Shown: positions 10,042 to 62,148 of the stretch, piece after piece | Numbering within the stretch: the first letter of the stretch is position 1 | Layout: every line of letters starts with the position of its first letter | Position numbers and translations under genes: made by a program | The notes under the pieces: model-generated | Told to the model about the DNA's origin: nothing | The model's database searches: none | What the model saw: the letters and a program-made list of their open reading frames with translations, nothing else | Source: Armatimonadota bacterium | Lineage (GTDB): Bacteria > Armatimonadota > SYMT01 | Assembly (NCBI GenBank): GCA_041690135.1 | Contig: JAWLHY010000006.1 | Coordinates: 1-64,000 of the forward strand | DNA length: 64,000 bases | Direction: 5' to 3'

Positions 10042-10060
10042 TTGCGGGGAGGAAGCGCTA

Positions 10061-10309
10061 CTAGCACGGCAGACCCGGCGGAAGAAGACAAATGCAGCAG
10101 GCTTCTTCGCCCTCGACGCGAAGCTTCACGAGGCACGGCAGCTTCACAACAGTTGCTAGATCGGTAGATTGGTCTACAACCAGCCGAAATGTCACTCGTT
10201 CTTGACCAGCCTCGGCCGCTCTGGCGAGCCGTTGGACGAATTCCACTGCATCTCTTGGTTCTACTGATCCTGCAAGTGCAATATCCACTAACTCTTTGTG
10301 AGTTGCCAA
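10061..10309 (-). CDS. Small hypothetical protein with Cys-rich C-terminus
   Basis: 82 aa; GAGGTG RBS and TTG start; ends EACCICLLPPGLPC; co-oriented inside the operon. Confidence 0.55.
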   Translation of the reverse strand: MATHKELVDIALAGSVEPRDAVEFVQRLARAAEAGQERVTFRLVVDQSTDLATVVKLPCLVKLRVEGEEACCICLLPPGLPC

Positions 10310-10379
10310 ACTTCACCTCTCATTTCGTTTAGAATTAACACGGAATATGAAACGCAGGCTACGAAGAACCTACCTGCCC

Positions 10380-14380: not shown

Positions 14381-15428
14381 CTACAATCCCCACGCCAGAT
14401 TGCGGGAAAGGCAATATGCCGTCCCGCTGATGTATTATCTTACTAGCATGCCACACCGCATTTGCCTCGTTATGTAGGAAGTTGCAACGAAAGCGGGGAA
14501 GTGAGCACAACGTGAACTCCGTTAGCCTATTTATACTGTCGAGCATCAATTCCAAAAATATCTTCAATTCAAGGGAGTCTTTTTTGCCCATTCCCGCTAA
14601 ATCCAGCACACCTGCCACCTGCATCCGCATCGATAACAAACGTTCCCGTATTGAACACCATGATTTAAATGATCCTGCCGGGACCGATATCGGAAGAGGG
14701 TTACTCCCAAACAACAACTCCAGTGACAACAGTGCGTCCATGTATTCGAGCATCTGCTTCAGGTCAAATAAGAGCATGTCTCGGTGACCTTCCACAGTAT
14801 ACTCATCATGAAGTCGCCACCGCTCCAGCCATGCGTTGTGCTTAAAGTCATCATAGAGAGTCATCATTAGATTCATTGCGTATGCTCTTGCAGGCTCTAG
14901 AGCAAACCATTGCAAAGACGCATAGTTCTGACTACGCTCGCATGACAAAGAATTCCTAACGGGAATACGAAGTGTGTTCGTCCGTTGGCCCATCCAATTA
15001 GATTTCCGATTCGCTAGGCATTGATGCACCTCATCGCGTATCGGCAACCAATAAATTTCATTCGATCCCAAATCAGCAACAAATAACAGAAGCGGAAATG
15101 AGCATTTTAGTGCGTATTCGATTGAATGGGTCTCCATTACAAAAGAGATATATTCAGCCCGCACTTCGCAATTTGGAAATACATCGGGGAATTCAGATGC
15201 CAGAGATCCCGTAACCGGATAGGTGGAGCTATGAATGCAGCACTTTTCAGTCGATTTAAGCTGCACCCATATCCGTTTCCCGGTGACAATCTCCCCATCA
15301 ACTATTTCAATTTCAAAATCAACACCATAATCCTTCTCGACTTTTCTCGCTATCCACTCTTTAGGAAGCATTGATCTCAACAGATCGACCGAGGTTTCCT
15401 CCATCACATGTGATCGTGGGCGTTTCAT
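14370..15428 (-). CDS. DUF4365-domain (PD-(D/E)XK-like) protein
   Basis: MKRPRSH..KDYGVDFEIEI..IWVQLKST; AT-rich. Confidence 0.85.
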   Translation of the reverse strand: MKRPRSHVMEETSVDLLRSMLPKEWIARKVEKDYGVDFEIEIVDGEIVTGKRIWVQLKSTEKCCIHSSTYPVTGSLASEFPDVFPNCEVRAEYISFVMETHSIEYALKCSFPLLLFVADLGSNEIYWLPIRDEVHQCLANRKSNWMGQRTNTLRIPVRNSLSCERSQNYASLQWFALEPARAYAMNLMMTLYDDFKHNAWLERWRLHDEYTVEGHRDMLLFDLKQMLEYMDALLSLELLFGSNPLPISVPAGSFKSWCSIRERLLSMRMQVAGVLDLAGMGKKDSLELKIFLELMLDSINRLTEFTLCSLPRFRCNFLHNEANAVWHASKIIHQRDGILPFPQSGVGIVGGF

Positions 15429-15447
15429 AGCAATCGACTCTCTAGTA

Positions 15448-18400: not shown

Positions 18401-20562
18401 AGCAGCCCGCACTGCTCCAGGTTGGGCTGAACGATGCGCCAGCCCCGCCGTAGGTCCTCATAGACCCGGTACTCGATGAGCGCCTGAAACGCTTCCCGAT
18501 TGCGCCTGGGCAGTGCCCCGTACTTCCCGACCTCCTTGGCGTACTGCTCTTGCTCTAGGCCGAGCGCATCCATCACCTTCGCTGCAATGTTGGCATGGTC
18601 GAGTGATCCACTGGTCTGGAGCGCCTGGTAGATGGCAGAGCGGAGAAGTGCCACCTGCACAAAGTCATTGAAGTGGCCCGCCTGAAGGGAGGCATCCTGG
18701 CGGTTATCCGTGAAGCTCATCAGCTTCCGTGCCGTCTCGTCCACCGTCTCTTCCCGCCGCAGGTGGCTCACGGTCGAGATGGACTGAAGCGTGGTAGCCG
18801 TGCTGCGACCCTCGCTGCTCAACCGGGCCAGCTTACCGAAATCGTTCTTGTCACGCTTGGTGTAGACCACGCCGCAATGGAGACACGTCAGGAAGGGGCG
18901 GGGCAGGAACCAGGCGGAAAATGTGCGCTCTTCCGATGCGGAGAGCACATCGCCCTTGACGCTGACGTGGATGCGCCGGGGAATGTACTCTGCGAATTCC
19001 GCCTTCGGGCTGGTGCGCTGGCCGGACTTGCTGAAGTTGAACCAGTTGTCCGGGAGCGCGTCCTGCTCGGCGTCGGTCCAGACCGGGTTCTCCGGGTCGG
19101 CGTCGAGCAGGAGGTAACCATCCCGAACCTCGCCTTCTTCTTCCTCGGGCGTGGGCATTGGCGGGCGCGGAATGACGCGACCCTCGTGCTGGTGCCACTC
19201 CGCCAGGTAGTACTCCTGACCGCACTCGCGGCAGAAGACGAGGGGGAAGAGGAGCTTCTCCCCGTCCGGGGCATAGTGCTGGCCCTGAAGTGTCAGGAGC
19301 CGATCCGGCTCCGTCTCCAGTGTGCCGTAAACCGAACCGCCGCCCGAGATGAACTGGTGGAGCTTGAAGGCGAAGAGCGGCTGTCCTTCGGGGGTGCGGA
19401 CAGACGCGCCATGCTGAAACAGAGCGCGGAGCCGCTTCTCACAAGGGTCAATCCCTTCCCCGGTAGCCTTCGCGAGGGCCTCGGCTCCGGCCCGAAGCGT
19501 GATAGGTGTACGGCGGAGCAAATGGCTGTCTTCTTCTTCCACCCCGAACGTGTCTTCAATCCAGGCCGTGAGCGGGTTGACGATCAGCCTGTCGTAGAAA
19601 GCCTCCGGGAGAGGCGAGCGCACGGCATCACGAAGTTGCGCGGGCGTATGCGTTTCGTTGCGCGGGACGGAGCGCCGGAGCGTCTCCTCAATCACGCGCT
19701 CGGGCTTCACGGTCACCCCGAATACTCGGCTGGCGACACGGGCGACTTCCTTTCGCCGTTCGAACCGGCTGCCCCCGGCGACCATGGTGGCACTCGTGCC
19801 GATGGTCAGGAGGTCCGGGTTCCCGCACCGCTCGCGGAGACGACGCACCAGCATCGCCACGTCCGCGCCCTGCCGCCCCCGGTAGGTATGAAGCTCGTCG
19901 AGAACCAGGAACTCCAGTGCGGCGTGCAGCCGGTCTACGAAGCGGGCTTCTTCGGGGCGGGTGAGCATCAACTCCAGCATTACGAAGTTCGTGAGCAGGA
20001 TGTGCGGCGGATTGCGGCGGACCTCATCCTTTTCTTCGTCACTCTTCTGGCCGGTGTAGCTGCTGAAGCGGATGGGGCAGGTGCCTTCGGGTAGGTTCGC
20101 AGCATACCGCTTGAGTGCTTCTTCCTGGGAGTTGATGAGCGCGTTCATCGGATAGACGATGATGGCGCGAACCCGGCCCTCCTCCGGGTTGTGCTTGAGG
20201 ATGTGGTCGAAGATCGGCAACGTGTAGGTCAGGCTCTTCCCGGAGCCGGTCCCGGTGGTGACCACGTACGGCTCTCGGGCTGCAGCCGCTTCCACCGCCT
20301 CCCGTTGGTGGCGGTAGAGGCGCATCTCCCGGAAGAGGTCGGCGCAGAACGGGTGGAGCAACCCGTCCGAAACCAGGCGGTCTACGGTCGCGTCCGGCTC
20401 GTAGCTCGGGCTTAACTGGACCAGCGCCTCCGGCCAAAGGACACCCTCGTCCAGACGTTCCTTCACAAACCGGGCGATGCCCTCGTCCCGGATGTTCAGG
20501 AAGCTCTCGACGTAATCCGAATAGTCCCGGATGACCTCATCCCGCAGCGTGAAGGCGTTCAT
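15448..20562 (-). CDS. Large DEAD/DEAH helicase with Zn-binding motifs, DUF1998 and C-terminal DUF559/Vsr-like nuclease domain
   Basis: 1704 aa; TGTGSGKS, LDELHTY, TMELGIDI, QRSGRAGR, EAAEGGAG..CARACYRCL, PDFYY..VFCDGSVHD. Confidence 0.93.
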   Translation of the reverse strand: MNAFTLRDEVIRDYSDYVESFLNIRDEGIARFVKERLDEGVLWPEALVQLSPSYEPDATVDRLVSDGLLHPFCADLFREMRLYRHQREAVEAAAAREPYVVTTGTGSGKSLTYTLPIFDHILKHNPEEGRVRAIIVYPMNALINSQEEALKRYAANLPEGTCPIRFSSYTGQKSDEEKDEVRRNPPHILLTNFVMLELMLTRPEEARFVDRLHAALEFLVLDELHTYRGRQGADVAMLVRRLRERCGNPDLLTIGTSATMVAGGSRFERRKEVARVASRVFGVTVKPERVIEETLRRSVPRNETHTPAQLRDAVRSPLPEAFYDRLIVNPLTAWIEDTFGVEEEDSHLLRRTPITLRAGAEALAKATGEGIDPCEKRLRALFQHGASVRTPEGQPLFAFKLHQFISGGGSVYGTLETEPDRLLTLQGQHYAPDGEKLLFPLVFCRECGQEYYLAEWHQHEGRVIPRPPMPTPEEEEGEVRDGYLLLDADPENPVWTDAEQDALPDNWFNFSKSGQRTSPKAEFAEYIPRRIHVSVKGDVLSASEERTFSAWFLPRPFLTCLHCGVVYTKRDKNDFGKLARLSSEGRSTATTLQSISTVSHLRREETVDETARKLMSFTDNRQDASLQAGHFNDFVQVALLRSAIYQALQTSGSLDHANIAAKVMDALGLEQEQYAKEVGKYGALPRRNREAFQALIEYRVYEDLRRGWRIVQPNLEQCGLLRVDYEGLEEFCADPEPWVAHALLQAATPNTRQYAVQAVLDYMRRALGISAECLDPRTQESLRRRVREALKEPWAFDESEALRPGPRFMLPGEYAPRQNEASLGPRSALGRFLRSKDTWGLTDSISEADYVPLVTVLMRVLREAGFVISVDDEGKSVQLRSDALLWTPGDGSPLPPDPIRSRRMDLRDRDIQRRVNPFFRDFYRSTASLLRGTEGGEHTAQVSYETRMRREREFRAGRLACLYCSPTMELGIDISDLNVVHMRNVPPTPANYAQRSGRAGRSGQPAFVATYCSVGSGHDQYFFQRQKQMVAGFVAPPRLDLGSEELVRAHVHSVWLAKTGKSLGRSVMDLLDTGNPEAGFPLREDFATQLHLSEARLEECLDECHRVLQSCHPDLGSSGWYSEDWLRNALQSAHERFDRACDRWRELFTTAERQLQEARAVIDRSHQIRMRQDEVDLARQREREAIRQKDLLCCINTKSDESDFYPYRYFASEGFLPGYNFPRLPVRAFIPTHGPDKGEFVARPRFLAISEFGPRNIVYHEGGKYAVTRSLLPPGAAESRFIRAKLCKACGYFHEGDAAQVDLCENCGVRLDGDKSEFITRLFEMTTVATQRRERITCDEEERRREGYEVTTHFRCAPGESGTRRSRASVVDTEGHGLLALTYASAATLWRICHRWRRTRELGFRLDTAKGIWGKRPTVEDGDPTADAEGQTVQNGVRIFVRDTRNLLLVRPPAGMTLDEGAFASLQHALHNGIEAVFQIEESELASERIGEVEDRSILFWEAAEGGAGVLKRLAEEPDALARVAREALSICHFDPETGTENPDAADDCARACYRCLLTYTNQPDHPRLNRHSVREVLLRLASGTTRRGTDGRSYEEHYQYLRSLTDTRSQLERDLLDLLYRTNRRLPDLAQANLADYYCCPDFYYGERRACVFCDGSVHDGRVAEAEDTRVRGDLEDLGYRVVVIRYDQELEGQVLRFPDVFG

Positions 20563-20696
20563 CGCGTATCTGCATTCCAGGTTCGTACGGGCAGGCCACT
20601 CCGGGAAATACGGGAGGGTCGTAGCTCCTCACTGTACCACAACTGCTCGTCGGCACTGGACCTCACCACGATAGTCACACCTTCCGCCGTTCGCAG

Positions 20697-20837
20697 CGGG
20701 ATGGGGACGAGGTAACTGCTGGAGCGGCGCTTCGGCACGATCTCGCTGGTGATGCCTTCCTCCCCGAAACGGAAGTGGCGGGACGGCTCCACGAACGGGG
20801 AGTTCAGGATGGGGTTTTCGATAACGACCGACGGCAT
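20697..20837 (-). pseudogene. res: N-terminal remnant of Type III restriction subunit
   Basis: MPSVVIENPILNSPFVEPSRHFRF..RRSSSYLVPIP, then homology is lost. Confidence 0.8.
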
Positions 20838-21161
20838 AGGCAGAGGATGCAAGGAGCGGCTTCATTGTCGTACGAGCCGAAGAAAGGTTGGCCGCTCACC
20901 GGCCTATTTCCTTGCTCCCGACCGCCTTCTTTAGGAAAAGCTCCCAACTCCAGCGGCACCCGCGGGAGGGCGAGCGGTTTGTTTCCGGGTCACAGGAGCA
21001 CTCTCCGCCTGGATTACTGTAGGCCACCACCGTCTAGCTGGGGTGAGCCTGACACTCATTGACACTGCGCTTCAGCATCCATTCCCTGTCCTAGTCGTTA
21101 GAGGACTCGTCGCCTGGCACCCTGCCGGGCGGGCAAGGCTCCTCACGCCAAGGAGGGAGAC

Positions 21162-22184
21162 ATGGGATCGCAGGTGCTTCCCGGCCCGAGTATTTCCTTC
21201 ACCAGGTACAAGACGTACGACGAGTGCCCCCGCCGCTGGCTTTATCAGTACAGGAGCAGCCTCCTGCCCGGAGCCCCCGTGTGGCCGGTCGAGCAGCAGC
21301 GGAAACTGGCCCCCTGGCAAACCTTTGCGGGGAAGGTGGTGGACGCAGCCATCGGGGAGATCCTTCACCGTTACAAACGGGAAGGGAAGTGGCCCGAGGA
21401 TGCCCGCAAGATCGCGCAAGACTTGGGATCGCGCGGTTGGGCGTTCTCGAAGGAATGGGTCCAGAAGGTGAAGCAGCACGCGAGTTGGCCCAAGAGCGAA
21501 CACGGCTTCCAGCCTTTGGACCGACACTACTACCACGAGCCGTTCACGGAGGACGAACGCCAGGCGATCCGCGAGCGGGTCGTGCGGTGCGCCGAAAACT
21601 TCATCCAGTCGGGCATCCCCGGCTTCATTTCCGGCTTCGACCCGGAGTGCTGGCGAGGACCTCGCCTGCCCAGCGAGCCGATCCCGCAGTTCGATCTCGA
21701 CGGGGTGACCGTGTGGGCTGCTCCCGACTTCGCTCTCGTGACGCCCGAGATCACCTACCTGATCGACTGGAAGACCGGTGCGCTTCACGGCACGAGTTAC
21801 CACTCTGCGATGACCCAACTTCACTGGTATGCGCTGTTCGCCACCCGCGCCTTGGGGGTCGCGCCCGAATCCATCCGCTTGATGCCGGTGTGGCTGTACC
21901 CCGAGGTGGAGGTCGAAGAAATGCCGGTCCGGGTTCAAGACCTGGAGGACCTGCAGGAGCAAATTCTGGACCGCTACCGTTTGCTCTGCGATCTCCTGCC
22001 CGGAGTGGAGAGGCTCGCGGCGGACCTCGAAGATTGGCCGCACACCTCCAGGGCCAGCCTGTGCAAGGGATGCGTGTTCCGGCAGTCGTGCGGCGGGGCC
22101 ACCCGCACCGCACTACAGGGGTCCGCCGAGCCCGATGAGGAGGATGAAGAGGTTCTGGCGGCCGAAGCGGCAGGGTCCGGCTAA
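21162..22184 (+). CDS. PD-(D/E)XK nuclease, AddB/Cas4-like with Fe-S cysteines
   Basis: ISFTRYKTYDECPRRW, APDF..IDWKTG, QLHWYA, CKGCVFRQSC. Confidence 0.85.
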   Translation: MGSQVLPGPSISFTRYKTYDECPRRWLYQYRSSLLPGAPVWPVEQQRKLAPWQTFAGKVVDAAIGEILHRYKREGKWPEDARKIAQDLGSRGWAFSKEWVQKVKQHASWPKSEHGFQPLDRHYYHEPFTEDERQAIRERVVRCAENFIQSGIPGFISGFDPECWRGPRLPSEPIPQFDLDGVTVWAAPDFALVTPEITYLIDWKTGALHGTSYHSAMTQLHWYALFATRALGVAPESIRLMPVWLYPEVEVEEMPVRVQDLEDLQEQILDRYRLLCDLLPGVERLAADLEDWPHTSRASLCKGCVFRQSCGGATRTALQGSAEPDEEDEEVLAAEAAGSG

Positions 22185-22231
22185 TTCGCGGATCTTCCGT
22201 TCGCCAAGGCAACTGTACAAATACTCCCAAG

Positions 22232-23866
22232 TTAAATATTGTCCCGATAATTGACACCCAATGCCCGCCAGGCTAGCCGATGAATGTTTACCCGAGCCTC
22301 TTCGGTAAGTTCAGCAGTTGATACATTTCTCCACCCATCATAGCACCATTGAATGCTCTCTTGCGGCCGAAGCTTAAGCCCAATCAGCCCAACCTTATAT
22401 AGCACTTGAAGCAGCAACCGTTTGAAAGACTGTGGTCCACATCGACCCTCCGCCACTGGGCGTGCAGAGTCGATTAGTGGATCGCCCTCTATCAACTCGT
22501 ACTCGGCCACTGTATCGAGACAGAGTGTGCTCCACTCGTCATCACTGATGTCGGATACGGAGAAGATTGCCGGTCTGCGCTCCAGAATTCGAACAAATCC
22601 CTTTAGCGATGGGTAATCAGCATACCATTCATCATAAAGAGCATTTAGTCGGTCGCGTGAATACTCTCCTTCTGCTCGTTGTATATCCTTCGGCGCAAAG
22701 GTAGGCACATCGTTTACTTGCCGAATGCACGCGTTGAAGAACTGTATTATGTCCCTGGGGCGCATTAATGTGCGATCAATCATATAGTCGATGGTATCTT
22801 GCTTGCCAATCTTCGGAGGAAGCACGTCCGAAGATACAACTGCCTGATTCGTGTATCTTTGCTCTACAAGGTGATTTATCCTGCGATTAAGAACCGTCTG
22901 TAGTTGTTTGCGTGTCCAGCCCACCCACAAGTTGAGCGAATCGTATTTTTCACGCTGGAAGCCAGGATCTCGCGTAGTCTCATATACTCTCTCTAGTAGA
23001 TCAACTCGCAGCGCGATTATGACCTTGGCATGGCGCATAGCATAAAAGTCTCGCGCCGTATCGATCAGGGCTCGGATGAGCCGAAGTCGCCATTGATCAT
23101 CAACCCAGTTCTCATCTAGGCGGTCTATGACGAGATAGTAGGGTTTCTGATGGTCCGAAATCAGCTCGTCCAGAGTGTGAATGATGTTCATTAGGGCACT
23201 TATCTGCACATTGTTTATGACATGTTGCGCCTTATGAACGATGTCTTGCCTTTCTTCCATGGTTAGCTTTACACCAGATTCTACCCCGGAGGTCACATTT
23301 CCATACTTCGCGCCCAACTTGGCTTTGAGATCCTGCTCGACCTTTTCAGTATACTCTTTGACGCGGTTCTCTGTATCCTCCCAAAACGAAGGCCCATATT
23401 TTTCTAACCATTCAATATTCTCTCTGTGCTTCTTGTCCTGAAAGAAGCGGCGGTACACCTGGTCTAAAAAACTAGACTTTTTCTCCTGGCTCTTAACGTC
23501 GAAGTGAGCACGGATGAGTTCAGCAGCGAACACATGACGCCACAGGAGTTTGAAAAATGGATCAGGGTTTATATTCAGCTCTGCTAGGAATCGCAGTATT
23601 GTCGAATTGGTTATATGTGGAAGTGCAAGAGACTCTGGAGCGACCGGGATCACGCGGCGCCCGTCTGAAGCCAATTGCTTGAGTAGTGCAGTCTTACCGC
23701 TACCGGTGCGACCCAGAACAATCCTTCGCGGATCGGCACAATCGGAGATCCGAGTGATATCTCCAGTGTCTACAAAACAGGCACGAAGGAAAAGATCGTC
23801 CGCTTCTGCGTCAGGTGCGCCAATGGTATCGCTGCTTCGGAATCGGAACTTGGAAGGTAATGCCAT
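22232..23866 (-). CDS. P-loop ATPase (Sll1717-like)
   Basis: 544 aa, AT-richer; IGAPDAEAD, GRTGSGKT, IDRLDENW, RTLMRPRDII. Confidence 0.8.
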   Translation of the reverse strand: MALPSKFRFRSSDTIGAPDAEADDLFLRACFVDTGDITRISDCADPRRIVLGRTGSGKTALLKQLASDGRRVIPVAPESLALPHITNSTILRFLAELNINPDPFFKLLWRHVFAAELIRAHFDVKSQEKKSSFLDQVYRRFFQDKKHRENIEWLEKYGPSFWEDTENRVKEYTEKVEQDLKAKLGAKYGNVTSGVESGVKLTMEERQDIVHKAQHVINNVQISALMNIIHTLDELISDHQKPYYLVIDRLDENWVDDQWRLRLIRALIDTARDFYAMRHAKVIIALRVDLLERVYETTRDPGFQREKYDSLNLWVGWTRKQLQTVLNRRINHLVEQRYTNQAVVSSDVLPPKIGKQDTIDYMIDRTLMRPRDIIQFFNACIRQVNDVPTFAPKDIQRAEGEYSRDRLNALYDEWYADYPSLKGFVRILERRPAIFSVSDISDDEWSTLCLDTVAEYELIEGDPLIDSARPVAEGRCGPQSFKRLLLQVLYKVGLIGLKLRPQESIQWCYDGWRNVSTAELTEEARVNIHRLAWRALGVNYRDNI

Positions 23867-24687
23867 CTCTAGCCTTTCTACGTTCGATCAGATTCTAGTA
23901 AGTGGTTCACGCTGCCAAACGTTACCCGGTTACCAACACGTTCGCTATGCCGCATCCCTAACGATCAATCGCCTATACAGCTATATTCCATTCAGTTGAC
24001 GAGGTGGTGGGGTGACCCTGGAAGAGTAGATCCTGAACCATGACGCATAATCAACTTATTCTTTGAAGACACGTTTAGGTGTCTCGTAGGGCTGAACCGA
24101 GATTGGGGATTGACCTTGGCGCTGTTTGAAACTCACTCCGGCGTTATGCAAGTCCTCGAAGGGCATCGGACACTCAACCGAGCGTTGCGTGGAGACGAGT
24201 GGCAGATGCCCCACGTCCAGTTCATTCCCCACAGGGTCGCCGCACTTCGCCGCAAATCTAGGCCGGGGTGGACCCACGACAACCACAGGCGCTTACCTAT
24301 TGGGTACAGAAGCAACGTTCCCCTGTCATCATTGGGAACCTCTCGCGTCTTTTCCTGCAAGGGTGGTAAAGTTTCGCCAGCAGTACTCCATACGGGAAAC
24401 TTGCCTGTCTGTCTTGCAACAGCGGGTGGCCAGCAGGTCAAAACATGCGAAACAAATGCGAAGCCAGATTGATAGACTTACGCCTGAACCTGCAATCTGT
24501 GCATAATGTGAACGTATCCTACAGCACCTCCCGGCGGCTCCCATCCAGCCGGATAATGATGAGTGAGTACGCGACGCACTTGAGCCCGCCACGATAGGGG
24601 TCGGCAGAATCGGGTGGCGGCTGCGAACAGGAGTTCCTCTGGAAAACGTAGACAGAGAGGCAGCAGACTGCACTTGATGCAGGGTCA

Positions 24688-24809: not shown

Positions 24810-25145
24810 CGAGGCAACTCGTTGGTGAGTGTCGCAGTAGACCTGCCCCCGAACCGGTCTTTGGGCTCGACACAGTAGGCGCGGACCGTTTCGGACGAGT
24901 TCTTCCCGCACGTCGCCCTCCGGGCGGAGTCGCCTGCCGGAGCGACCGAGGTCACCGGTGCCGCCAGGAGCGCAGGAGATGCCCCAGAAGCCGCTGTAGG
25001 GGCCAGGAACGCTGTGGAATCCGTTCTCCCTTCATGGGTAGGAGGGCGGCCAACAGGCGGTTGCGGTCCCAGAGCTTGACCCCATTCGATTCCGCCAGCG
25101 TTGCCGCCTGCCGGGCGAACCGGCTGTTAGTCGCGACGACGCCAG
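24810..25145 (-). pseudogene. Mrr-like restriction endonuclease C-terminal remnant with Zn-finger, copy A
   Basis: VVATNSRFARQAATLAESNGVKLWDRNRL and TCGKNSSETVRAYC..RFGG in different frames. Confidence 0.7.
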
Positions 25146-25277
25146 CAGCAGCCCCAGGGGGATGCCGCCGAGAAACCCTTCGACCCGCCCATGCCTGCTG
25201 ACTTCCGTGTTCAAGATCAAGCTCCACTCTGGGAGGAGGCCAGGCCGGGAGAAAGCGCACCGGCGGGGTAGTCGAAA

Positions 25278-25995
25278 TCACAGCGCCCGCAGGGCACCCT
25301 CGATCCGGCGCACTGCTTCGGGCGGCAGGTTGTTCCGCGAGACGTAGACGGCCTGGGGGTTCTTGAGGCGGTAGCATTCCGCCTGCGCCAATTCCGGCAG
25401 GGACTCTCGCCAGGGGGTCTCCGCCCGCATCACGATCACGGGGCAGCCGGACCGGATCTTGGCGGCGGCGAGGGCCGAGGAATACCGCTGCGACGGGATC
25501 AGGTTGGGCAGGGCCGAGTATCTGCGAGAGGCGTACGGGAACAGTTCCGATGCAGAAGAAAGCCCGCCCGACCCGCTCCTTATCATAAAGGTCCACCCAG
25601 TCCCGCAGACGCTGGCTCCACCACCGCGAACCGCCGTTCAACAGGTAGCGCGGGTGGAGGGGATAGAAGGGGCAATCGGCCGGGACCTCGTGGCGAAGAT
25701 TCCCGACACACAGGTCCATCACTGGCTTCCGGGCATGGAAGACCGGCCCTTCTTCGTTGTAGCCGGGGTTGAGGTTGAGCAGGAGGATCGGCGCGTCCGG
25801 GTGGCCCAGATACGGCTCCGGGAAGACGTCGAAGTGGAGTTCGCACTCCCGCGCCTTCTCGGGCGGATACCGAGCCGCCAGCCGGGCGTTATGCGCCTGC
25901 ACCCACGGCAGATCCTCGGGCGTGCAGTACGGTTGTCGCCCCGCTTCGATGGTAAACCACGGGTTGGGCAGCGGAAGGGTGTCGAGAATGCTCAT
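25278..25995 (-). pseudogene. UDG-superfamily, Brig1-like DNA glycosylase with a +1 frameshift at ~25547
   Basis: PEPYLG..ILLLNLNPG..WWSQRL..FFCI then ELFPYAS..PSQRY; removing one G joins the two frames. Confidence 0.7.
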
Positions 25996-26045
25996 GGTCA
26001 GGATCGGAGAGTAGGTGAACGGGGAGGTCAGCGGCGCGACGCGGG

Positions 26046-26504
26046 CTATAGCTGGGACCGCCAGGCCCGGTGCCGCCAGACGCTCTCCTGGTGCCGCTCA
26101 ATCAGGTCCTGGTATTCCCAGCGGGCAACGTCCTTGTCGAAACCGGGCGGCTTGTCGAGCCACCGCTCCAGGCCAGGCGCGGTCTCCCGTCCCGCCTGCT
26201 TGTCGCTCTCCGCCAGCGCTACGAAGTAGCCGGAAGAGGGCATCCCGTAGCGGTTGCGGGGCCGATCATATAGCTCTGACTGACCCTCTCCGGCTTTCAC
26301 CACCACGGAGGTGATCGGTGGGAACCCGCGGCGCTCGCAGGCACGGAATACCCAGCCGAGCACCTGACCGATGTGCCCGCCCCCAGGGCCAAACGCCACC
26401 CCGGTCGCGCTATTGAGTTCCTGGTAGGTTGCCACGGTCTGCCGGGGAATGACCTCGGCAACGAGATAGGCGTAGATCCTCCGACCTTCCTCTGGCACAC
26501 TCAC
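26046..26504 (-). CDS. ATL/MGMT-like HTH protein
   Basis: TYQEL..G..IGQVLG..C..GFPPITSVVV..GMPSSGYF; GGAGG RBS before GTG. Confidence 0.6.
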   Translation of the reverse strand: MSVPEEGRRIYAYLVAEVIPRQTVATYQELNSATGVAFGPGGGHIGQVLGWVFRACERRGFPPITSVVVKAGEGQSELYDRPRNRYGMPSSGYFVALAESDKQAGRETAPGLERWLDKPPGFDKDVARWEYQDLIERHQESVWRHRAWRSQL

Positions 26505-27173
26505 CGGCGCAGCCTCCCTCCGCAACCCCACACGCCCGGACGGGCCACGCTGGCAGGCCATCTTTCGGGCGGGCGCGTCTTTGTCCCGTAGAGATTATTG
26601 CACGGACAACTGCCTTTTTCATCCTCGGCTGATCGGTAACCGGGGAATGCCGAGTCCCACTCCGTCCTCGGTCAGTGTTCGCGTGGGGTGCTGCCGCTGC
26701 CGTTGCGCACTCTGGGCTCTGGGCAACGCCTTGAGGAGCGGCTCATGGTCGTCGCCGCGTACCAGCAGCCCAGGTAGGGTGGCCTCTGTCATGACTGGCG
26801 CGGACTGCTCCGTGACACGCGAGAACACCTCCCCCAGAAGCTCAATTGTCCCGTTCTGCCCCTTCCCCGTGGGGCACCCCCCTATTTTCCCCTACATGAG
26901 CCCGAAGCTCGACGCTGGATGGGGGGATAGTTGTTTGTCCGCTCTAGAGGGTACTTTTCAGAAATGCGGTCCCCCGCACCGAATATGCGCTTGACAACGA
27001 GTAAGGGTTCGCTTTGCTCTGTACCGACGGCGAACCCCGGAACCGTGGCGGGAGATGGACCGATCCAACTTCCCGCTGTCCCCACTAGAGTCGCATTCGG
27101 TCCGCAGGGCTTCCTGCCAGGCGTGCCTCCACCAGATCTGCCTCCGCCAAGGGCGAGGTGCCCGCCGCCGCGT

Positions 27174-34334: not shown

Positions 34335-34850
34335 TCAGCGCAGATTCATCCGGTCGCCGGGTGAGGCCCGCCGATGTGCCGCTTCCGCGTCGGTCTGGGT
34401 GATGAGCACGTACCGGCGCAGGATCTCCAGGCTCTCGTGCCCCATCAGGACCTGCAACTCGTAGACGTTCCCTCCGGCCCGCAAGAACTCAATGGCGAAG
34501 GTGTGGCGGAACGTGTGAGGTGAGCAGCGCACGCCCTGGACTCCGGCCACCTGTCCGAGCTTGCGGATCACCTGTGTGAATCCCGAACGGGTCATGGCCT
34601 CCCCGGAACGAGTGCCACCTTCCGCCAGGAAGAGCGGCTCCTCGGGCTTTGCGCCCCGGCGCTGGACCTCCAGGTATCGTCGGACCGCCCGCCGCGCATC
34701 CCGACCCAGATAGACCCGACGCCGCTTCCCACCCTTGCCGGTGACCGTGATCTCTCCGGTGCCACTCTCCACGTCCGCAATCCGCAAGGAGCCCACCTCG
34801 CTGATGCGGAGACCGCTGTCCAGGAACATCCTGACCACGGCACAATTGCC
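34335..34850 (-). pseudogene. 5'-truncated tyrosine recombinase (catalytic domain only)
   Basis: LDSGLR..HTFRH..LMGH..RRY; 2 aa differences over 162 aa from the 47511-48548 integrase. Confidence 0.9.
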
Positions 34851-35203
34851 CCCAATCATTGGCAGAAGCAACCGACACCTTCCAGTGCATGAGTCACTCC
34901 ACCGAACTCCACTCACGCACAGCACCCGCTGGGAATGCGCCATCCGAAGCAAGTTTCACACAGAGGAGAAGCAGTCCCACCTACATAATTAGGTAAACGG
35001 TAGGTTGGCTGATGACACAGCGGGTTAGCAGGGAACTCCGGCAATTGGATAGACGCTTTTCCTCGTGCCTGAAAGTCCATCCCAAGCGCCCTCACCGAGC
35101 CCAGCGTCGGAAAGGCGGTTTCAGCTCTGCAGCAGCGGAGGCACGCGCCATCGGGAGTGACGCACTGACAGCCCCCCGGACAACAGGAGGTAAGGGATAG
35201 GCG

Positions 35204-36404: not shown

Positions 36405-36740
36405 GACGCGGGGCGGACCGCTGGTAATCGTAACAGTAGACCTGCCCTCCGAACCGTTGTGGGCGCTGGGCACAGTAGGCGCGGACCTTCTCGGACAGGT
36501 TCTTCCTGCACGTCGCACACCGGGCGGAGTCGTATGTCGGAGCGACCCAAGCCACCGGTGCCGCCAGGAAGCGCAGGAGATGGCCCAGAAGCCGCTGTAG
36601 GGGCCAGGAGCGCCGTCGAGTCTACCCCCTACGAATAGAGAGGGCGACCACCAGACGGTTCCTGTCCCAGAGCGTGACCCCATTCGCCTCCGCCAGCGTT
36701 GCCGCCTTCCGGGTGAACAGGATTACTGCATGGGCAACCG
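36405..36740 (-). pseudogene. Mrr-like endonuclease C-terminal remnant, copy B
   Basis: FTRKAATLAEANGVTLWDRNRL and CATCRKNLSEKVRAYC..RFGGQVYCYDYQR; homologous to 24810-25145. Confidence 0.7.
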
Positions 36741-37402
36741 CCTTCTCCATCCTCGATTGGTCGGCAACCGGGGAATGGTCCCTGCGTTCTGTCCAATGGC
36801 GGTGCTCGCCTCCGGTTCCGCTGCTGCCGTTGCGCACTCCCGGATCGGCGTTACTACCTGGGAAGCGCCTCATGTTCATCGGCGTGTACGGACAGTGCCT
36901 GGGATGAGCCCGGTATCAAAGGCGGCAGGGATAGCCTCGCGTGTGGTGAGGGCGATACGTCCATGCCATGCGCAAAGCCCTGGGTGATACAGAGGTGACA
37001 GGCACCCCCTAATTTCTGTGTATGGAAGGCAAGCGAGCCGTTGACTGCACCGATACAGGTAAGTAGCCGCTATCAGGAATTTTTCGAGAATCAGGTCTCC
37101 CGCACCGGACATGCACCTGGGCAACGAGTAAGGGTCGCTTTGCTCTATGCCAGCGCCGAATTTCGGAACCGAGAAGGGTCGGGGATGCTGCACCGGCTCT
37201 TGGGTGCGGTGTGCCGGAACCGAAGATCCTGTTTGAGGTTCCAATAATGGGGTGGGCGTGCGCCCGAAGTTCCCTTACGCCTTGCAAACGCGGACTACGG
37301 CGCGGCTGATTGGAAGGCTGGGCACAGGTTATGGACGCTGCCCCAGCGGCCTGTTAAGATCAGACACCCTCCACCCCTTGTAGGCAGTTGCGCAAATCAC
37401 GT

Positions 37403-40400
37403 ATGTCGGATGAGGATCTGGACCCCGTAATGACTTGTGACCGTGCGAGCGTCCTCCTGGTCGATGATCGTCCCGAGAACCTCCTGACGCTGGAGGCCGC
37501 GCTCTCCGACCTGGATGTAGACCTGGTTCGCGCCACTTCCGGTCCCGAGGCGCTGAAGCAGGTCCTGGACCGGCAATTTGCGGTGGTCCTGCTCGACGTG
37601 CAAATGCCCGAGATGGACGGCTTCGAGACGGCGCGACTCATCCGGCAGCGGGAGCGGAGCCGCGACACCCCTATCATCTTCCTGACCGCCGACGAGCGTG
37701 CCCCCACCCAGGTGTTTGACGTCTACGCGGCGGGAGCCGTGGACTTTCTCGTCAAGCCCGTGGTACCGCAAATCCTCAAGGCCAAGGTCTCCACCTTCGT
37801 AGCACTCCACCGGCAGGCGCTGGCCCTCCAGGCTGAAGTGCGGCAGCGCGTACAGGCCGAGCAGGCGCTTCGTGCGGCCGCTCAACAGCGGGAACAAGCC
37901 GAGGCGGAGGTCCGACGCCTGAACCAGGAACTGGAAGCCCGGGTCACCCGCCGCACAGCGGAACTCCAGCGGGTGCGGGACCGCCTGCATTTCCTGGCGG
38001 AAGCCAGCGCCCTCCTCGGGTCCTCTCTGGACTACGAAGTGACCCTCCAGAACGTGGCCCGGTTGGCGGTATCCTGCTGCGCAGATTTCTGCGTAATCGA
38101 CGTGCTCGAACACGACGGACTCCTTCGCCGGGTGGCAGTGGCCCACGCAGACCCCGTACAGGAGGAGCAGTTCGGGCCACTGCTGCGGCAGCACACCCCC
38201 AACCGTGATCGGGGCATGATTGCAGAAGCGCTGCGGGAAGGCCGGTCCTTCCTGGTGCCGGAAGTGACGGAAGCCTGGATGGAGGCCGTAGCGACCAGTG
38301 AAGCCCACCGGGGACTCATGCAGGACCTCGGGGTTCGCTCGGTGATGTTGGTCCCCCTCCAGGCTCGTGGCCGCACCCTGGGCCTGCTCGTCTTCGGATC
38401 TACCGAAGAGGGGCACCGCTATGGCACAGAAGATCTGGCCGTCGCGGAGGCCCTGGCCCACCGGGCGGGCTTGGCGCTCGACAATGCCCGGCTGTACCAG
38501 GAGGCGCGGACCAGTGGGGAACGGCTGCTCCGCTTGACGGAAGCCTCGGCCACGCTCCTGCCGGGCGGGGAGGGGCGATCAATCGTGTCCGCCGTGCTCG
38601 ACCTGGCACAGCGTCTGATCCCGGCCGATGCCTTGGCCCTCTGGAGGCAAGAAGAGCCGCACGGCTGGACGATGGTGGCGCAGGCCAACCTTTCGGCAGG
38701 CTGCCCGGCCGCACTTTCACCCAGCGCAGATCGGCTGTCTGCGGAAGCGGTTTGCATCGAAGATGTGGAAGCCTGGTCCGGCCCGGAAGAGCGGCGCGAA
38801 GCCTACCGCGCTGAAGGTATCCGCTCCCTGCTCCATACTCCGCTCCGCCTGCACGGGGAACTTACCGGCACCCTCACTTTTTACTACCGGAGACCGTACC
38901 CCTTCGAGGAAGGGGAGGTGCGCGTGGCGACCGCCCTCGCCAACCTGGCGGCTTCCGCGATTACTACCGGCGAACTGTACACCGAACAGCGCCGGATGCG
39001 GAACGCGGCGGAGGCCGCGCAGGAGCAACTGCGGTTTCTGGCGGAAGCCAGCACGGTGCTCGCCTCTTCTCTCGACTACCGGACCACTCTGGAGCACGTA
39101 GCCCAACTCGCGGTGCAAAGCCTGGCCGACTGGTGCACCGTGCACCTCGTGGAAGAGGACGGGAATGTGCGGCAGGTCGCCCTAGCCCACGTGGACCCCG
39201 AGAAGGTGAAGTGGGGCCGAGCGCTCGGAGAGCTTTACCCTTACGATCCCGACCAGCCCCGAGGGGTGGCGCACGTATTGCGATCCGGGCAGACCGAAAT
39301 CTACCCGGAGATCACCGACGACTTGCTAGTGCAGACGGCACGAGACCCGGAGCACCTGGAACTACTGCGGAAGGTCGGCTTTACCTCCTGTGTGATCGCG
39401 CCCCTCCGAATCAGGGATCAGGTGCTGGGAGCCATCAGCTTCATCGCTTCCGAATCCGGCAAGCGCTACGATGCCGCCGGAGTGGCGCTCGCGGAAGACC
39501 TGGCGCGGCGGGCGGCCACGGCCATTGACCATGCCCGCCTCTTCCGCCAGGCGGAGGAGGCACTCCGCCAGCGCGAGGAGACGCTGGCACTCTTGGACAC
39601 CCTGTTCGCTTCGGCTCCGGTGGCCCTGGCCTTCCTCGACACAGACCTCCGCTATGTGCGGGTCAATGAAGCCCTCGCGGGCATGCATGGGAAGCGCCCG
39701 GAGGAGATCGTGGGCCGCACCCTTCACGAGATGGTGCCCACCATGGCTGCGATGTTGGAGCCCCTCTACCGGCGCGTCATGGAAAGCGGAGCGCCGCTGC
39801 TGAACCTGGAGGTGAGCGGAGAAACCTCCGCCGCGCCCGGCGAGCAATGCCACTGGCTGGTGAACTATTACCCCGTGCGCAATCCGCAGGGGCAGGTGCT
39901 CGGCGTAGGGGCTGCGGCGGTGGAAATGACGGACCGCATCCGGGTGAGGCAAGCCCTGCAAGCCAGTGAGGCGCGGCTGGGCGGCATCATCGGCTCGGCG
40001 ATGGACGCCATCATTACCGTGGACGCAAGGCATCGGATTACGCTCTTCAACGCGGCGGCGGAGCGAATGTTCCGGTGTTCGGCCGCCTCTGCCCTGGGGG
40101 AGCCGGTGGAACGGTTCATTCCCGAGCGGTTCCGCCGGATGCACGCCGGACACGTGATGGCATTCGAGGAAAAGGGGGAGACGAGCCGCTCCCTCCGGTC
40201 GCTGGGCACGCTCACGGCACTCCGGGCGGATGGCGAGGAGTTCCCTATCGAGGCCGCCATTTCGCAGGTGGAAGTCGGTGGGGAGCGGTTCTTCACGGTT
40301 ATTCTGCGGGACGTGACGGACCGCCTGGCGTTGGAAGCGGAGCTTCGCGAGCGCGTGAAGGACCTCGCGCTGGCCGCACAGCGCAAGGATGAGTTCCTGG

Positions 40401-47510: not shown

Positions 47511-48548
47511 TCAGCGCAAGTTCATCCGGTCGCCGGGTGAGGCCCGCCGATGTGCCGCTTCCGCGTCGGCCTGGGTGATGAGCACGTACCGGCGCAGGAT
47601 CTCCAGGCTCTCGTGCCCCATCAGGACCTGCAACTCGTAAACGTTCCCTCCGGCCCGCAAGAACTCAATCGCGAAGGTGTGGCGGAACGTGTGGGGCGAG
47701 CAGCGCACGCCCTGGACCCCGGCCACCTGTCCGAGCCTGCGGATCACCTGTGTGAATCCCGAACGGGTCATGGCCTCCCCGGAACGAGTGCCACCTTCCG
47801 CCAGGAAGAGCGGCTCCTCGGGCTTTGCGCCCCGGCGCTGGACCTCCAGGTATCGCCGGACCGCCCGCCGCGCATCCCGGCCCAGATAGACCCGACGCCG
47901 CTTACCGCCCTTTCCGGTGACCGTGATCTCTCCGGTGCCACTCTCCACGTCCGCAATCCGCAAGGAGCCCACCTCGCTGATGCGGAGACCGCTGTCCAGG
48001 AGCACCCACAGCAAGGCCCGATTGCGTTCCGGCTGCTGGCTGCGCCGGGCGGCATCCAGGAGTGCCTGTATCTGCTCCGGGGTGAACGGCTGGATCTGAT
48101 CCTTCGGGGTCCGGGGCGGCTTGAGGTTCTGGAGTGGGGAGGCCGGAAGTAGCTCCTCACGGACGCAGAATTCCCCGAAGGCGTGCAGGTTGCGGTAGTC
48201 GTGGAGAAGCGTGTAGGGACGCGCAGGCCGCTTGGCGGTGGGCTTGCCGCAGCCGAACCGTCCTTCCGGGTGAGGCTCCCGCAGGTAGGCCAGGAATCGG
48301 CGGATGCGGTCTTTTGTGAGGGTGTGCAGGCTGGCGGGGACCTGTTCCTCGTGCTCTAGCCACCAAGCCACGCGGCGTAGCCCTTCGCGGCGATCCTGAA
48401 GGGTGCGCTCGGTCCAGCCCTGCGCCCGACCGTCGGCCAACCACAGCTCCACGGCCCGCATGAGGGCCAGGGATGATTCGGAGCGAGGGGAGGAGGTGGG
48501 GGGAGACTGGTGCTCTTTACTCCCCCGAGACTGGTGCTCTATTCTCAC
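47511..48548 (-). CDS. Tyrosine recombinase/integrase (Xer-like size, no obvious arm-binding domain)
   Basis: 345 aa; catalytic R (GLR), K (GKG), HxxR (HTFRH), H (LMGH), Y; AGGAG RBS. Confidence 0.95.
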   Translation of the reverse strand: MRIEHQSRGSKEHQSPPTSSPRSESSLALMRAVELWLADGRAQGWTERTLQDRREGLRRVAWWLEHEEQVPASLHTLTKDRIRRFLAYLREPHPEGRFGCGKPTAKRPARPYTLLHDYRNLHAFGEFCVREELLPASPLQNLKPPRTPKDQIQPFTPEQIQALLDAARRSQQPERNRALLWVLLDSGLRISEVGSLRIADVESGTGEITVTGKGGKRRRVYLGRDARRAVRRYLEVQRRGAKPEEPLFLAEGGTRSGEAMTRSGFTQVIRRLGQVAGVQGVRCSPHTFRHTFAIEFLRAGGNVYELQVLMGHESLEILRRYVLITQADAEAAHRRASPGDRMNLR

Positions 48549-48606
48549 GTTTGCGTCTCCTGAACGAAGGGTCCAGCAAGACGCGTAACCGGAGACTGGT
48601 GCTCTA
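48503..48606 (-). repeat. Three direct repeats of AGAGCACCAGTCT, identical to part of the adjacent tRNA-Arg
   Basis: Plus-strand gagactggtgctct at 48503, 48527, 48592; tRNA has agactggtgctct at 48684. Confidence 0.92.
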
Positions 48607-48643
48607 CTTACGCACGAAATGAGCGAGTGGGAAGGAAGGGAAA

Positions 48644-48717
48644 CGCTCGCGGAGGGATTCGAACCCCCGACACCCAGTTCCGAAGACTGGTGCTCTAATC
48701 CACTGAGCTACGCGAGC
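48644..48717 (-). tRNA. tRNA-Arg, anticodon TCG; CCA not encoded
   Basis: GCTCGCG/CGCGAGC acceptor, GCTC-AGTGGATTA-GAGC D arm, CCAGT-CTTCGGA-ACTGG, GGGGG-TTCGAAT-CCCTC. Confidence 0.95.
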
Positions 48718-48844
48718 CTATGAAGGGTCCCAGCGACAACCCGCTTCCCATCTCTGATGGAGTAGTGGAAGACAGGCGGAACCGCCGGGAGCCCGATTAT
48801 AGCAGGTCCGGGATCGCAGCGGAAGACCGTTGAATCGCCGCACT

Positions 48845-49390
48845 TCAGCTTTGCCAGATCCACGCGCCGATCAGCTGTCCGGAGCCATCGATGGCGATGT
48901 CCAGGTAATCGCCGTCCAGCCGCATGCCGCTCCAGTCTCCCAGGTAGTACCGGAGGATCTCTCGCGTCCTCTCGTAACCGCGACCTTCGACCAGCGGCCG
49001 TCCCCGGTACTGCTCCCGGCCATCGGGCGGTCCGAGCAGTCGGACGACCGCCTCCCGCTTCATCCCCTTCTTCAGGTGGCGGCGGACCAGACTTCCCGCC
49101 ATCCGCCCGCGGAGGCTGTCCCGATCTGTCCTGGCCTCCAGCCACCGCTGCTGCTGGAAGGGCGCGCGGTGGAATGGGCTCAGCCGGAGTTGGAGCCACC
49201 CGGCGCCGACCGCACCGAGGGCAAAAACTCCGACGATGATCGCTCCGACCAGCAGGCTCGATCGTTCCGGGAGTGCGCGACGCTTGACGGCACCGAAGAT
49301 CCACGTACCGCCAAATCCGAGTATGGAGATCCCCAGCCCGGCGAGCATCAACAGATACAGAAGCGCCGCAAGCAACTGATCCGGGGTCAT
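48845..49390 (-). CDS. Membrane protein with BamE/SmpA-like C-terminal domain
   Basis: Two TM helices; LKKGMKREAVVRLLGPPD..LRYYLG. Confidence 0.7.
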   Translation of the reverse strand: MTPDQLLAALLYLLMLAGLGISILGFGGTWIFGAVKRRALPERSSLLVGAIIVGVFALGAVGAGWLQLRLSPFHRAPFQQQRWLEARTDRDSLRGRMAGSLVRRHLKKGMKREAVVRLLGPPDGREQYRGRPLVEGRGYERTREILRYYLGDWSGMRLDGDYLDIAIDGSGQLIGAWIWQS

Positions 49391-61743: not shown

Positions 61744-62148
61744 TTATGGGCGAAAGCCGTAGGGCCAACGCGTCTCTGCGTTGTGCCGCACACCGGTAAG
61801 GTTCGCGCCCAGGAGAATTGCTCCGGCCAGGTTGGCCCCGGAAAGGTCGGCGCCGGAGAGATCCGTGTTCCACAGAATTGCGCCGGAAAGATCGGCCCCG
61901 GAAAGGTCGGCGCCGGAGAGATCCGCGCCCTCCAGGTTAGCTCCCTGCAGGTTTACTCCGGGGCACGCGAACCCCGCCATCTGCGCGCCCCGCAGGGTAG
62001 CACCCGCCAGGTCGGCATCCGCGAGAGAAGCGCCTTCGATCCGCAGCAGTACCACCTCATGCGCCTTCCGGTGCCGGATCTCAATGATCCGGGCCGTCAG
62101 TGGCAGGAGAACGCCCGCGATTAGCAGTTCTTCAATCAATCGTTGCAT
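61744..62148 (-). CDS. Pentapeptide repeat protein
   Basis: Tandem A(D/N)LxG repeats, TRWPYGF end. Confidence 0.9.
   Translation of the reverse strand: MQRLIEELLIAGVLLPLTARIIEIRHRKAHEVVLLRIEGASLADADLAGATLRGAQMAGFACPGVNLQGANLEGADLSGADLSGADLSGAILWNTDLSGADLSGANLAGAILLGANLTGVRHNAETRWPYGFRP

Follow-up and report, generated by a model that had tools for sequence, protein, structure and literature searches.

The attachment site of phage lambda, attP, carries arm-type sites arranged as two on one side (P1 and P2) and three on the other (P'1 to P'3). The Brujita integrase, the best-studied simple integrase of a phage, has reportedly been called arm-less and directionless, in the title of a 2016 study by Lunt and Hatfull. 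Accessory sites that copy a core motif, as well as integrase genes overlapped by the arms of their own attachment (att) sites, are already known. In the internal recombination site (IRS) of Tn4430, on which TnpI acts, a core of two inverted motifs is described as adjoining two directly repeated motifs, DR1 and DR2, that have 9 bp in common with the core motifs and impose the alignment, order and direction of strand exchange even with the core inverted (PMC2847244). The attI1 site is likewise reported to hold two supplementary, directly repeated IntI1 sites (DR1 and DR2) beside its core, with a proposed role as a topological filter (PMC8946536). For IntS of KplE1, int is described as adjoining a tRNA gene, with attL overlapping the int promoter and negative autoregulation of the gene (PMC2951348). 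Finally, in the current classification the tyrosine recombinases of mobile elements are presented as having become mobile by acquiring an arm-binding domain (PMC8138268). Here we describe an integrase gene (int) in a 64,000-nucleotide stretch from an Armatimonadota bacterium (contig JAWLHY010000006.1, positions 1 to 64,000; the window) that bears, over its leader and first codons, three copies of a segment of the neighbouring tRNA-Arg(TCG).

We consider it likely that these three copies are accessory (arm) sites for the neighbouring integrase, forming its integrase-proximal P' arm, with a role in complex assembly and probably in autoregulation. The features concerned are as follows.

48644..48717, minus strand: tRNA-Arg(TCG), integration target (ARAGORN; Rfam tRNA, 68.5 bits)
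~48690-48674, minus strand: presumed core site, the anticodon stem-loop of tRNA-Arg
48684..48696, minus strand: core left half-site, AGAGCACCAGTCT, template of the repeats (tRNA nucleotides 22-34)
48593..48605, minus strand: putative arm site P'1, 13/13 copy; last base at +89 from the anticodon centre, start 57 nucleotides (nt) 5' of the int start codon
48546..48548, minus strand: start codon (GTG) of int, with AGGAG 8 nt upstream and P'2 8 nt downstream
48528..48540, minus strand: putative arm site P'2, 13/13 copy; codons 3-7 of int, +154 from the anticodon centre
48504..48516, minus strand: putative arm site P'3, 13/13 copy; codons 11-15 of int, 24 nt after P'2, at +178
47511..48548, minus strand: int, Xer-like simple tyrosine integrase of 345 residues (Pfam PF00589, NCBIfam, AlphaFold2, Foldseek, alignment)

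The tRNA-Arg(TCG) gene is the sole tRNA gene of the window, and int lies downstream of it in the same direction. A first, sequence-only reading of this DNA had reported a tRNA-Arg segment repeated three times downstream in the same sense. This was confirmed, a 193-nt stretch of the minus strand containing AGAGCACCAGTCT four times. In tRNA-Arg the segment corresponds to canonical positions 21-33 and ends at U33; it spans the last base of the D-loop, the 3' strand of the D-stem, nucleotide 26, the 5' strand of the anticodon stem and the first two bases of the loop. The 17/18 match of the leader copy TAGAGCACCAGTCTCCGG to tRNA-Arg was also verified, as was the in-frame position of the two other copies (MRI-EHQS-RGSK-EHQS), the open reading frame (ORF) from the GTG at 48548 reading MRIEHQSRGSKEHQS. 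The CCG anticodon that had been pointed out in the leader copy did not hold up as a feature, since a C follows the common ...GTCT in all three copies. Within the whole genome (9,098,857 bases) the exact 13-mer occurs five times, four times here and once in a tRNA-Arg fragment on contig C23, and the reversed pattern, used as a control, does not occur at all. Neither a further copy of the 13-mer nor a displaced tRNA-Arg fragment was found inside the window, its island side (1-48500) included; a single site with two mismatches lies at 21772.

Homologues of the integrase located at other tRNA genes carry repeats matching their own tRNA, a positive outcome of the comparison that the sequence-only reading had named as decisive. 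A set of 157 loci (79 from genomes and 76 from metagenomes, at most 80 being taken per scan, plus the window and a paralogue of the same genome) was placed by tblastn. At least 300 nt upstream of the conserved domain were available for 132 of them, the other 25 being dropped for short upstream sequence. A full tRNA ending at most 500 nt upstream was present in 82 of these 132 loci; the 50 without one were not scored. The 82 loci cover 24 tRNA species by anticodon, with 70 tRNAs co-oriented with int and 12 inverted. For each locus, the left half-site of its own tRNA and the reverse complement of the right half-site were used as probes, and the probes of other tRNA species, in 200 permutations, provided the control. 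With 13-nt probes and at least 11 matching positions, 59 sites were detected in 40 of the 82 loci, spanning 17 of the 24 tRNA species, against a control mean of 3.4 sites and a maximum of 10. All 59 lie on the int strand. Requiring at least 12 matching positions left 23 sites in 16 loci, again all on the int strand (control mean 0.4 sites). With the inner 10 nt and at least nine matches, 76 sense and 2 antisense sites were found in 54 of the 82 loci, the control means being 3.9 sites and 2.9 loci. An earlier run on 54 genome-derived loci had given 38 sites in 24 loci (control mean 2.4). With respect to the half-sites of the tRNA, the copies repeat either the integrase-distal one in direct orientation or the proximal one in inverted orientation, and on the int strand all of them read from the outer part through the stem to the start of the loop. 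Members of the family were seen in metagenome-assembled genomes labelled Armatimonadota, Chloroflexota, Elusimicrobiota and others, and in the present genome. The earlier idea of a target-specifying element that co-varies with the tRNA is thus right as far as the co-variation goes; a separate targeting element is not supported, since one protein surface would read both core and arms.

The co-variation also bears on whether the repeats could be sites for a protein other than the integrase, either a recombination directionality factor or a host factor. Other conserved elements do occur in the arms, in particular a 12-mer next to the first copy.

48608..48619, minus strand: 12-mer TTTCGTGCGTAA, just upstream of P'1 (3 copies in the genome)

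Each of the three copies of TTTCGTGCGTAA, the only ones in 9.1 Mb, stands beside a tRNA-Arg att site. A related sequence, GCACGAAA, is enriched before arm site 1 in relatives (10 occurrences in 68.8 kb of leaders versus 4 in 263 kb elsewhere). This motif may be a site for an accessory factor. The repeats themselves, however, copy exactly the core sequence that the integrase must read and change with it over 17 tRNA species, so that a separate protein would have to co-evolve its specificity at every target switch; no candidate gene for such a protein was identified. We regard recognition of the repeats by another protein as unlikely.

The positions of the sites are conserved, at about +88, +152 and +176. 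The position of a site is given here by its last base, counted from the middle of the anticodon. Whichever way the tRNA is oriented, and for tRNAs of Arg, Ser, Gly, Val, Thr and Ala alike, the sites end at +87 to +89, +150 to +154 and +176 to +178, examples being the window (89/154/178), locus L012 (89/154/178/202) and the paralogue (88/152). De novo repeat finding, made without any tRNA reference, gave the same spacings of 64-65 and 24 nt in many loci. A register with the start codon is also apparent. In the 30 loci having both sites and a start backed by a Shine-Dalgarno (SD) sequence, 20 sites precede the start and 27 fall within the ORF. Counted from the first base of the start codon, the distance to the beginning of a site is exactly 9 nt in 12 of these loci and 8-11 nt in 15; it is 8 nt in the window. 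In the closest clade, site 1 precedes the start by 53-57 nt. In the window, sites 1 and 2 bracket the ribosome-binding site (RBS) and the start codon, and sites 2 and 3 are within the first 15 codons. A variant layout was observed in a tRNA-Gln group (L041-L055, L065, L070, L087, L130), where a long conserved hairpin, ACCACAACATCT...AGATGTTGTGGT, replaces arm site 1 and three sites follow the start codon instead.

A second member of the family is available in the same genome. This paralogue (50% identical; C1:560883-561815) adjoins a tRNA-Ser(CGA) gene that is inverted relative to it. The int strand of the DNA separating the two genes holds three copies of the equivalent segment of tRNA-Ser, GGAGCCTGTCT, spaced by 64 and 24 nt (65 and 24 nt in the window), and an AGGAG-ATG start stands directly before copy 2. 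About 49 kb further on, two more copies of GGAGCCTGTCT, 24 nt apart, are followed by a pseudo-tRNA that matches tRNA-Ser exactly over its first 43 nt. One arm of the tRNA-Ser element therefore bears two sites and the other arm three. Its displaced tRNA fragment at the far end is as in tRNA-integrating genomic islands. In the element as a whole (C1:560592-610026, comprising locus L008 and the DNA beyond it), the duplicated part of the tRNA is the 5' one (nt 1-43) and not, as usual, the 3' one.

Spacing and register are also what decides on scars of repeated integration and excision, one of the origins proposed from the sequence alone, or on chance. It is true that tRNA-Arg is a hot spot, with a second element on contig C23 and a truncated second integrase copy in the window (see below). 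Scars would, however, copy the 3' part of the tRNA and not nt 22-34, and the 64-65 and 24-nt spacings and the start-codon register are conserved over unrelated tRNAs. As to chance, four of the five exact copies of the genome would have to fall within 193 nt, where the reversed-pattern control gave none in the entire genome. Scars and chance together are, in our opinion, practically negligible as explanations.

The leader of int was also analysed at the RNA level. It contains the following structure.

48553..48584, minus strand: hairpin whose 3' strand holds the SD sequence AGGAG (48561-48557); -17.8 kcal/mol, z -2.67

This hairpin, which the sequence-only reading had described as burying the AGGAG RBS, stood up to analysis, with 3 of 200 shuffles folding as well. 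The same reading had enclosed copy 1 in an inverted repeat, GCGTAA/TTACGC. The repeat does flank copy 1 (48613-48608 and 48588-48583), but its halves are unpaired in the minimum-energy fold of the RNA. An RNA hairpin around copy 1 was consequently rejected, the segment folding no better than shuffles (z +0.16). The SD-sequestering hairpin is real and is conserved in relatives. Over the 48 nt before the start in 99 loci with an SD-backed start, the mean z against mononucleotide shuffles was -1.84, with 45% of the loci below -2. Dinucleotide shuffles gave z values of -2.67 for the window, -4.77 for L012, -4.06 for L075, -3.64 for L091 and -1.49 for the paralogue (L008). The SD forms the 3' strand of the stem, and stem sequences vary among loci. 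In a few loci (L013, L028, L138) the hairpin is followed by a T-run; such hairpins may terminate tRNA read-through in some loci. The 144-nt leader taken as a whole folds no better than shuffles (z -1.02). In the Rfam search, tRNA was the sole known RNA family found. A scan of 48380-48800 for sigma-70 promoters and intrinsic terminators returned none of either, and in public sequencing runs at most 0.12 of the sampled words of 48300-48900 were present in any run.

These observations were used to weigh an action of the copies in RNA, where they would mimic or compete with the 5' strand of the anticodon stem and so couple int translation to the transcription or processing of the tRNA. Co-transcription is possible, the tRNA and int having the same sense in 70 of the 82 loci, and the conservation of the SD-sequestering hairpin would suit such a device. 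However, an inversion of the tRNA, seen in 12 of 82 loci, leaves the repeats on the int strand at unchanged distances, and copies are present at the far ends too, outside any int mRNA. Moreover, the leader lacks unusual stability as a whole, copy 1 is without a stable hairpin and Rfam recognizes only the tRNA. Of the RNA switch coupled to tRNA read-through that had been suggested earlier, the hairpin is thus to be retained, and the involvement of the repeats is disfavoured. An RNA function of the copies appears very unlikely to us.

Another point of view is that selection acts on the repeated N-terminal peptide (EHQS...EHQS) and that the DNA repeats only follow from it. The reading frame is indeed open through the repeats. 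In addition, more than 400 homologues of the integrase are found in databases at E ≤ 1e-20, and in an alignment of 29 sequences many of them show peptide repeats spaced by eight residues right after the initiator methionine. These N-terminal repeats vary between homologues (RATPS.., RASTP.., RAAS.., RPTAS.., RPST.., RPTT..), as expected if DNA sites dictate the codons. The peptide changes with the tRNA target (RATPS, RASTP, RPTAS, EHQS, SLS), which argues against its own selection, as do the predicted disorder of the region, the constant presence of one copy 5' of the start codon and the occurrence of site spacings of 23 or 25 nt, which are not multiples of three. A selected peptide is so improbable that we hardly retain it. 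As regards annotation, arm sites overlapping the first codons would explain the odd repeat-bearing N-termini of these integrases.

The domain structure of the protein was then compared with that of known recombinases. The Pfam search gave the catalytic domain only (PF00589, Phage_integrase; 119.4 bits for a cut-off of 27.1, residues 155-322) and no match to an N-terminal domain. Residues R189, K213, H286, R289, H312 and Y321 are invariant across the 29 aligned integrase sequences, and we take them to be the catalytic R-K-H-R-H-Y set. Similarity to XerC and XerD extends over the full length in NCBIfam, with scores below the equivalog cut-offs (155.1 versus 335.15 bits for XerC, 149.4 versus 329.6 bits for XerD). 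The protein is Xer-like and is not the housekeeping XerC or XerD. An AlphaFold2 model made from the 29-sequence alignment has a mean predicted local distance difference test (pLDDT) score of 89.3. Residues 1-27 (pLDDT 41-45) are without secondary structure and disordered, helices begin at residue 29, an all-helical core-binding domain covers residues ~29-130 and the catalytic domain residues ~157-341. No beta-sheet arm-binding fold is seen in the N-domain of the model. The top Foldseek matches were XerA, Tn1549 Int (residues 82-397, a part that excludes its arm-binding domain), IntI, XerH, Brujita Int (5vfz), XerD, Cre and lambda Int (75-356). The model thus predicts an integrase made of core-binding and catalytic domains only, without an arm-binding domain, the sole N-terminal extension being a variable disordered peptide partly encoded by sites P'2 and P'3.

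On these grounds the protein belongs with the simple tyrosine recombinases of the classification in PMC8138268, which have the core-binding and catalytic domains only. It differs from the heterobivalent, lambda-type class, as its arm copies are 13/13 identical to the core half-site and an arm-binding domain is missing. The likeness to lambda lies in the layout, the core being flanked by two arm sites on one side and by three on the side of int, with a higher-order intasome as the presumed purpose. Lambda Int, however, reads arm sites that are unlike its core by means of a separate N-terminal arm-binding domain, whereas the present arm sites equal the core half-site. With no separate arm-binding domain predicted, the surfaces that contact the core would also recognize the arm sites, and this would account for the arm sites being copies of a core half-site. 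With the Brujita integrase the protein shares the status of a simple integrase of a mobile element, with core-binding and catalytic domains only, but it comes from a family in which an elaborate array of arm-like sites has been conserved.

Taken together, these data favour one of the possibilities raised from the sequence alone, namely extra core half-sites serving autoregulation or substituting for arm sites, on account of the tRNA co-variation, the constant int strand, the fixed distances from the anticodon and the lack of an arm-binding domain. In the mechanism that we propose, cleavage by the integrase most probably takes place in the anticodon loop of tRNA-Arg, each side of the anticodon stem holding one protomer. 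Three sites (+89, +154 and +178) would be available on the integrase side and two (~-80 and ~-103) on the other arm. Extra protomers bound to them could help to assemble and orient the recombination complex, as DR1 and DR2 do for TnpI. Directly repeated, core-like extra sites near the core are indeed present here, as in the class of recombinases with accessory sites (TnpI/IRS, attI1). The accessory motifs of TnpI work with an inverted core, which parallels the two tRNA orientations observed in the present family. On the other hand, TnpI resolves cointegrates within a transposon and has its accessory motifs on one side only; the present system is an integrase acting at tRNA genes with 2 + 3 sites on both arms that track many tRNA targets. 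The attI1 system resembles it in relying on a simple tyrosine recombinase, IntI being a top fold match of the present integrase, and differs in that cassette recombination uses a folded single-stranded attC and no tRNA target; co-variation of the sites with a target is not reported for the integron system in the accounts cited here.

In the integrated state, occupancy of the sites by the integrase would probably repress its own gene, because the RBS and start codon lie between sites 1 and 2, and codons 3-15 contain sites 2 and 3. The SD-sequestering hairpin could act as a second brake on int translation. The situation recalls KplE1, with int next to the tRNA and putative arm sites overlapping the 5' region of int, except that the promoter overlaps attL in KplE1, whereas here no promoter is mapped and two sites are inside the coding sequence.

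Information on the other arm was obtained from loci lacking a full tRNA. Such loci often have a 3' tRNA fragment directly upstream of int (L017, L028, L041, L052, L055, L070, L075), which is an attP-like arrangement. In L028, identity to the tRNA starts in the anticodon loop, and this fits a crossover there. Two copies of the half-site, 23 nt apart, stand upstream of the fragments in L052 (-101/-78), in L075 (-113/-90) and on C23 (-103/-80). The tRNA-Arg fragment of C23 is an exact 58-nt copy of nt 17-74 (38161-38218), surrounded by an inverted pair of TTTCGTGCGTAA (38143-38154 and 38237-38248). Furthermore, contig ends overlap by 99 nt, the end of C23 with the end of C1 and the start of C6 with the start of C19. 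These overlaps allow C23(+) to run through the repeat into C6(+), which is the required orientation. From the site architecture and the compatible overlaps, C23:38161-38330 is the probable far junction of the island of the window, which would then exceed 51 kb.

C23 also contains a second element of ~15.4 kb (C23:22786-38218), bounded by two same-strand tRNA-Arg fragments, of which the one at ~22786-22835 is diverged. Its integrase (37189-38022; 28% identical) converges on the tRNA-Arg fragment. From this second element, tRNA-Arg(TCG) seems to hold a tandem array. In the window itself, a truncated second integrase copy is found on the minus strand at 34335-34952, 95% identical to residues 147-316 (96% DNA identity over 300 nt). 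It is devoid of the N-terminal half, of arm sites and of a tRNA fragment, and it suggests that two sibling elements in tandem have fused to form the island.

Several points weigh against the assignment of the copies as arm sites. No site was detected in 28 of the 82 loci with the 10-nt probes (at least 9/10) and in 42 of the 82 with the 13-nt probes (at least 11/13). At L011 the arm repeats (TAGAGCAACTACC) mismatch the adjacent Arg(CCT)-like tRNA, at L044 they fit another tRNA-Gln allele better than the local one, and at L081 they fit poorly. The loci are not all independent, several being near-duplicates, so that the number of tRNA species is the safer figure. The SD is paired in 62 of 99 loci where 47 were expected (only the upstream part being shuffled), a modest excess, and the claim of a hairpin therefore relies on the energy z-scores. 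With no sigma-70-like promoter found between the tRNA and int, autoregulation is proposed without a mapped promoter. The far end of the window's own island lies off its contig, and the link to C23 is one that we infer. Lastly, all support for a function as arm sites comes from sequence.

More cautiously, we lean towards a wider interpretation, in which a widespread family of simple, Xer-like integrases has reached lambda-like 2 + 3 arms by re-using the core half-site, without ever gaining an arm-binding domain. Seven sites and one protein surface would then change together whenever the tRNA target is switched (at least 17 tRNA species), and the first codons of int would be dictated by the sites. 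No description of tRNA-matching, core-like arm sites in simple integrases was found in the literature searched, which consisted of titles and abstracts, older attP studies and most subscription journals being outside its scope; thus, simple tRNA-gene integrases with conserved 2 + 3 core-like arm sites that track the target, two of them within the first codons, were not found described. If this interpretation is true, conserved multi-site arms without an arm-binding domain would represent a third solution, in which core-type contacts suffice for directionality and regulation. Since three to five examples of the preferred half-site accompany the gene of each member, target specificity can be read from the sequence alone, which helps the mapping of islands in metagenomes. 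Matched variants of protein and site over many tRNAs could guide the retargeting of integrases; if the interpretation holds, they would make up a large natural set of paired proteins and DNA sites from which a recognition code for retargeting tyrosine integrases might be drawn.

The remainder of the window concerns the content of the island and its surroundings. The island side (1-48500) encodes defence-type proteins, namely an Eco57I-type methylase, a SNF2 helicase, a DEAD helicase with an MrfA Zn-binding domain, a PD-(D/E)XK nuclease and Mrr-like and AAA_5 proteins, as well as two hybrid histidine kinases. PadR and DUF1501 genes are found on the other side of tRNA-Arg. A defence-type block at 5710-22184 comprises a 1443-residue Eco57I/N6 methylase, a 970-residue SNF2-family helicase, a 1704-residue DEAD helicase (the one with the MrfA Zn-binding domain) and the PD-(D/E)XK nuclease; this combination recalls DISARM-type systems. 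Inside the island, several co-linear duplicated segments (24846-27052 versus 36446-37178) are 71-91% identical and 10.1-11.6 kb apart. The GC content falls to 0.49-0.53 at 22000-24000, versus ~0.64 elsewhere, over a 544-residue ORF with a weak AAA_16 match, and this region is probably a more recent insertion within the island. Finally, a periodic array with a 15-nt unit occupies 61793-62032 in a minus-strand ORF, with seven overlapping 60-nt copies and a pentapeptide-type appearance.

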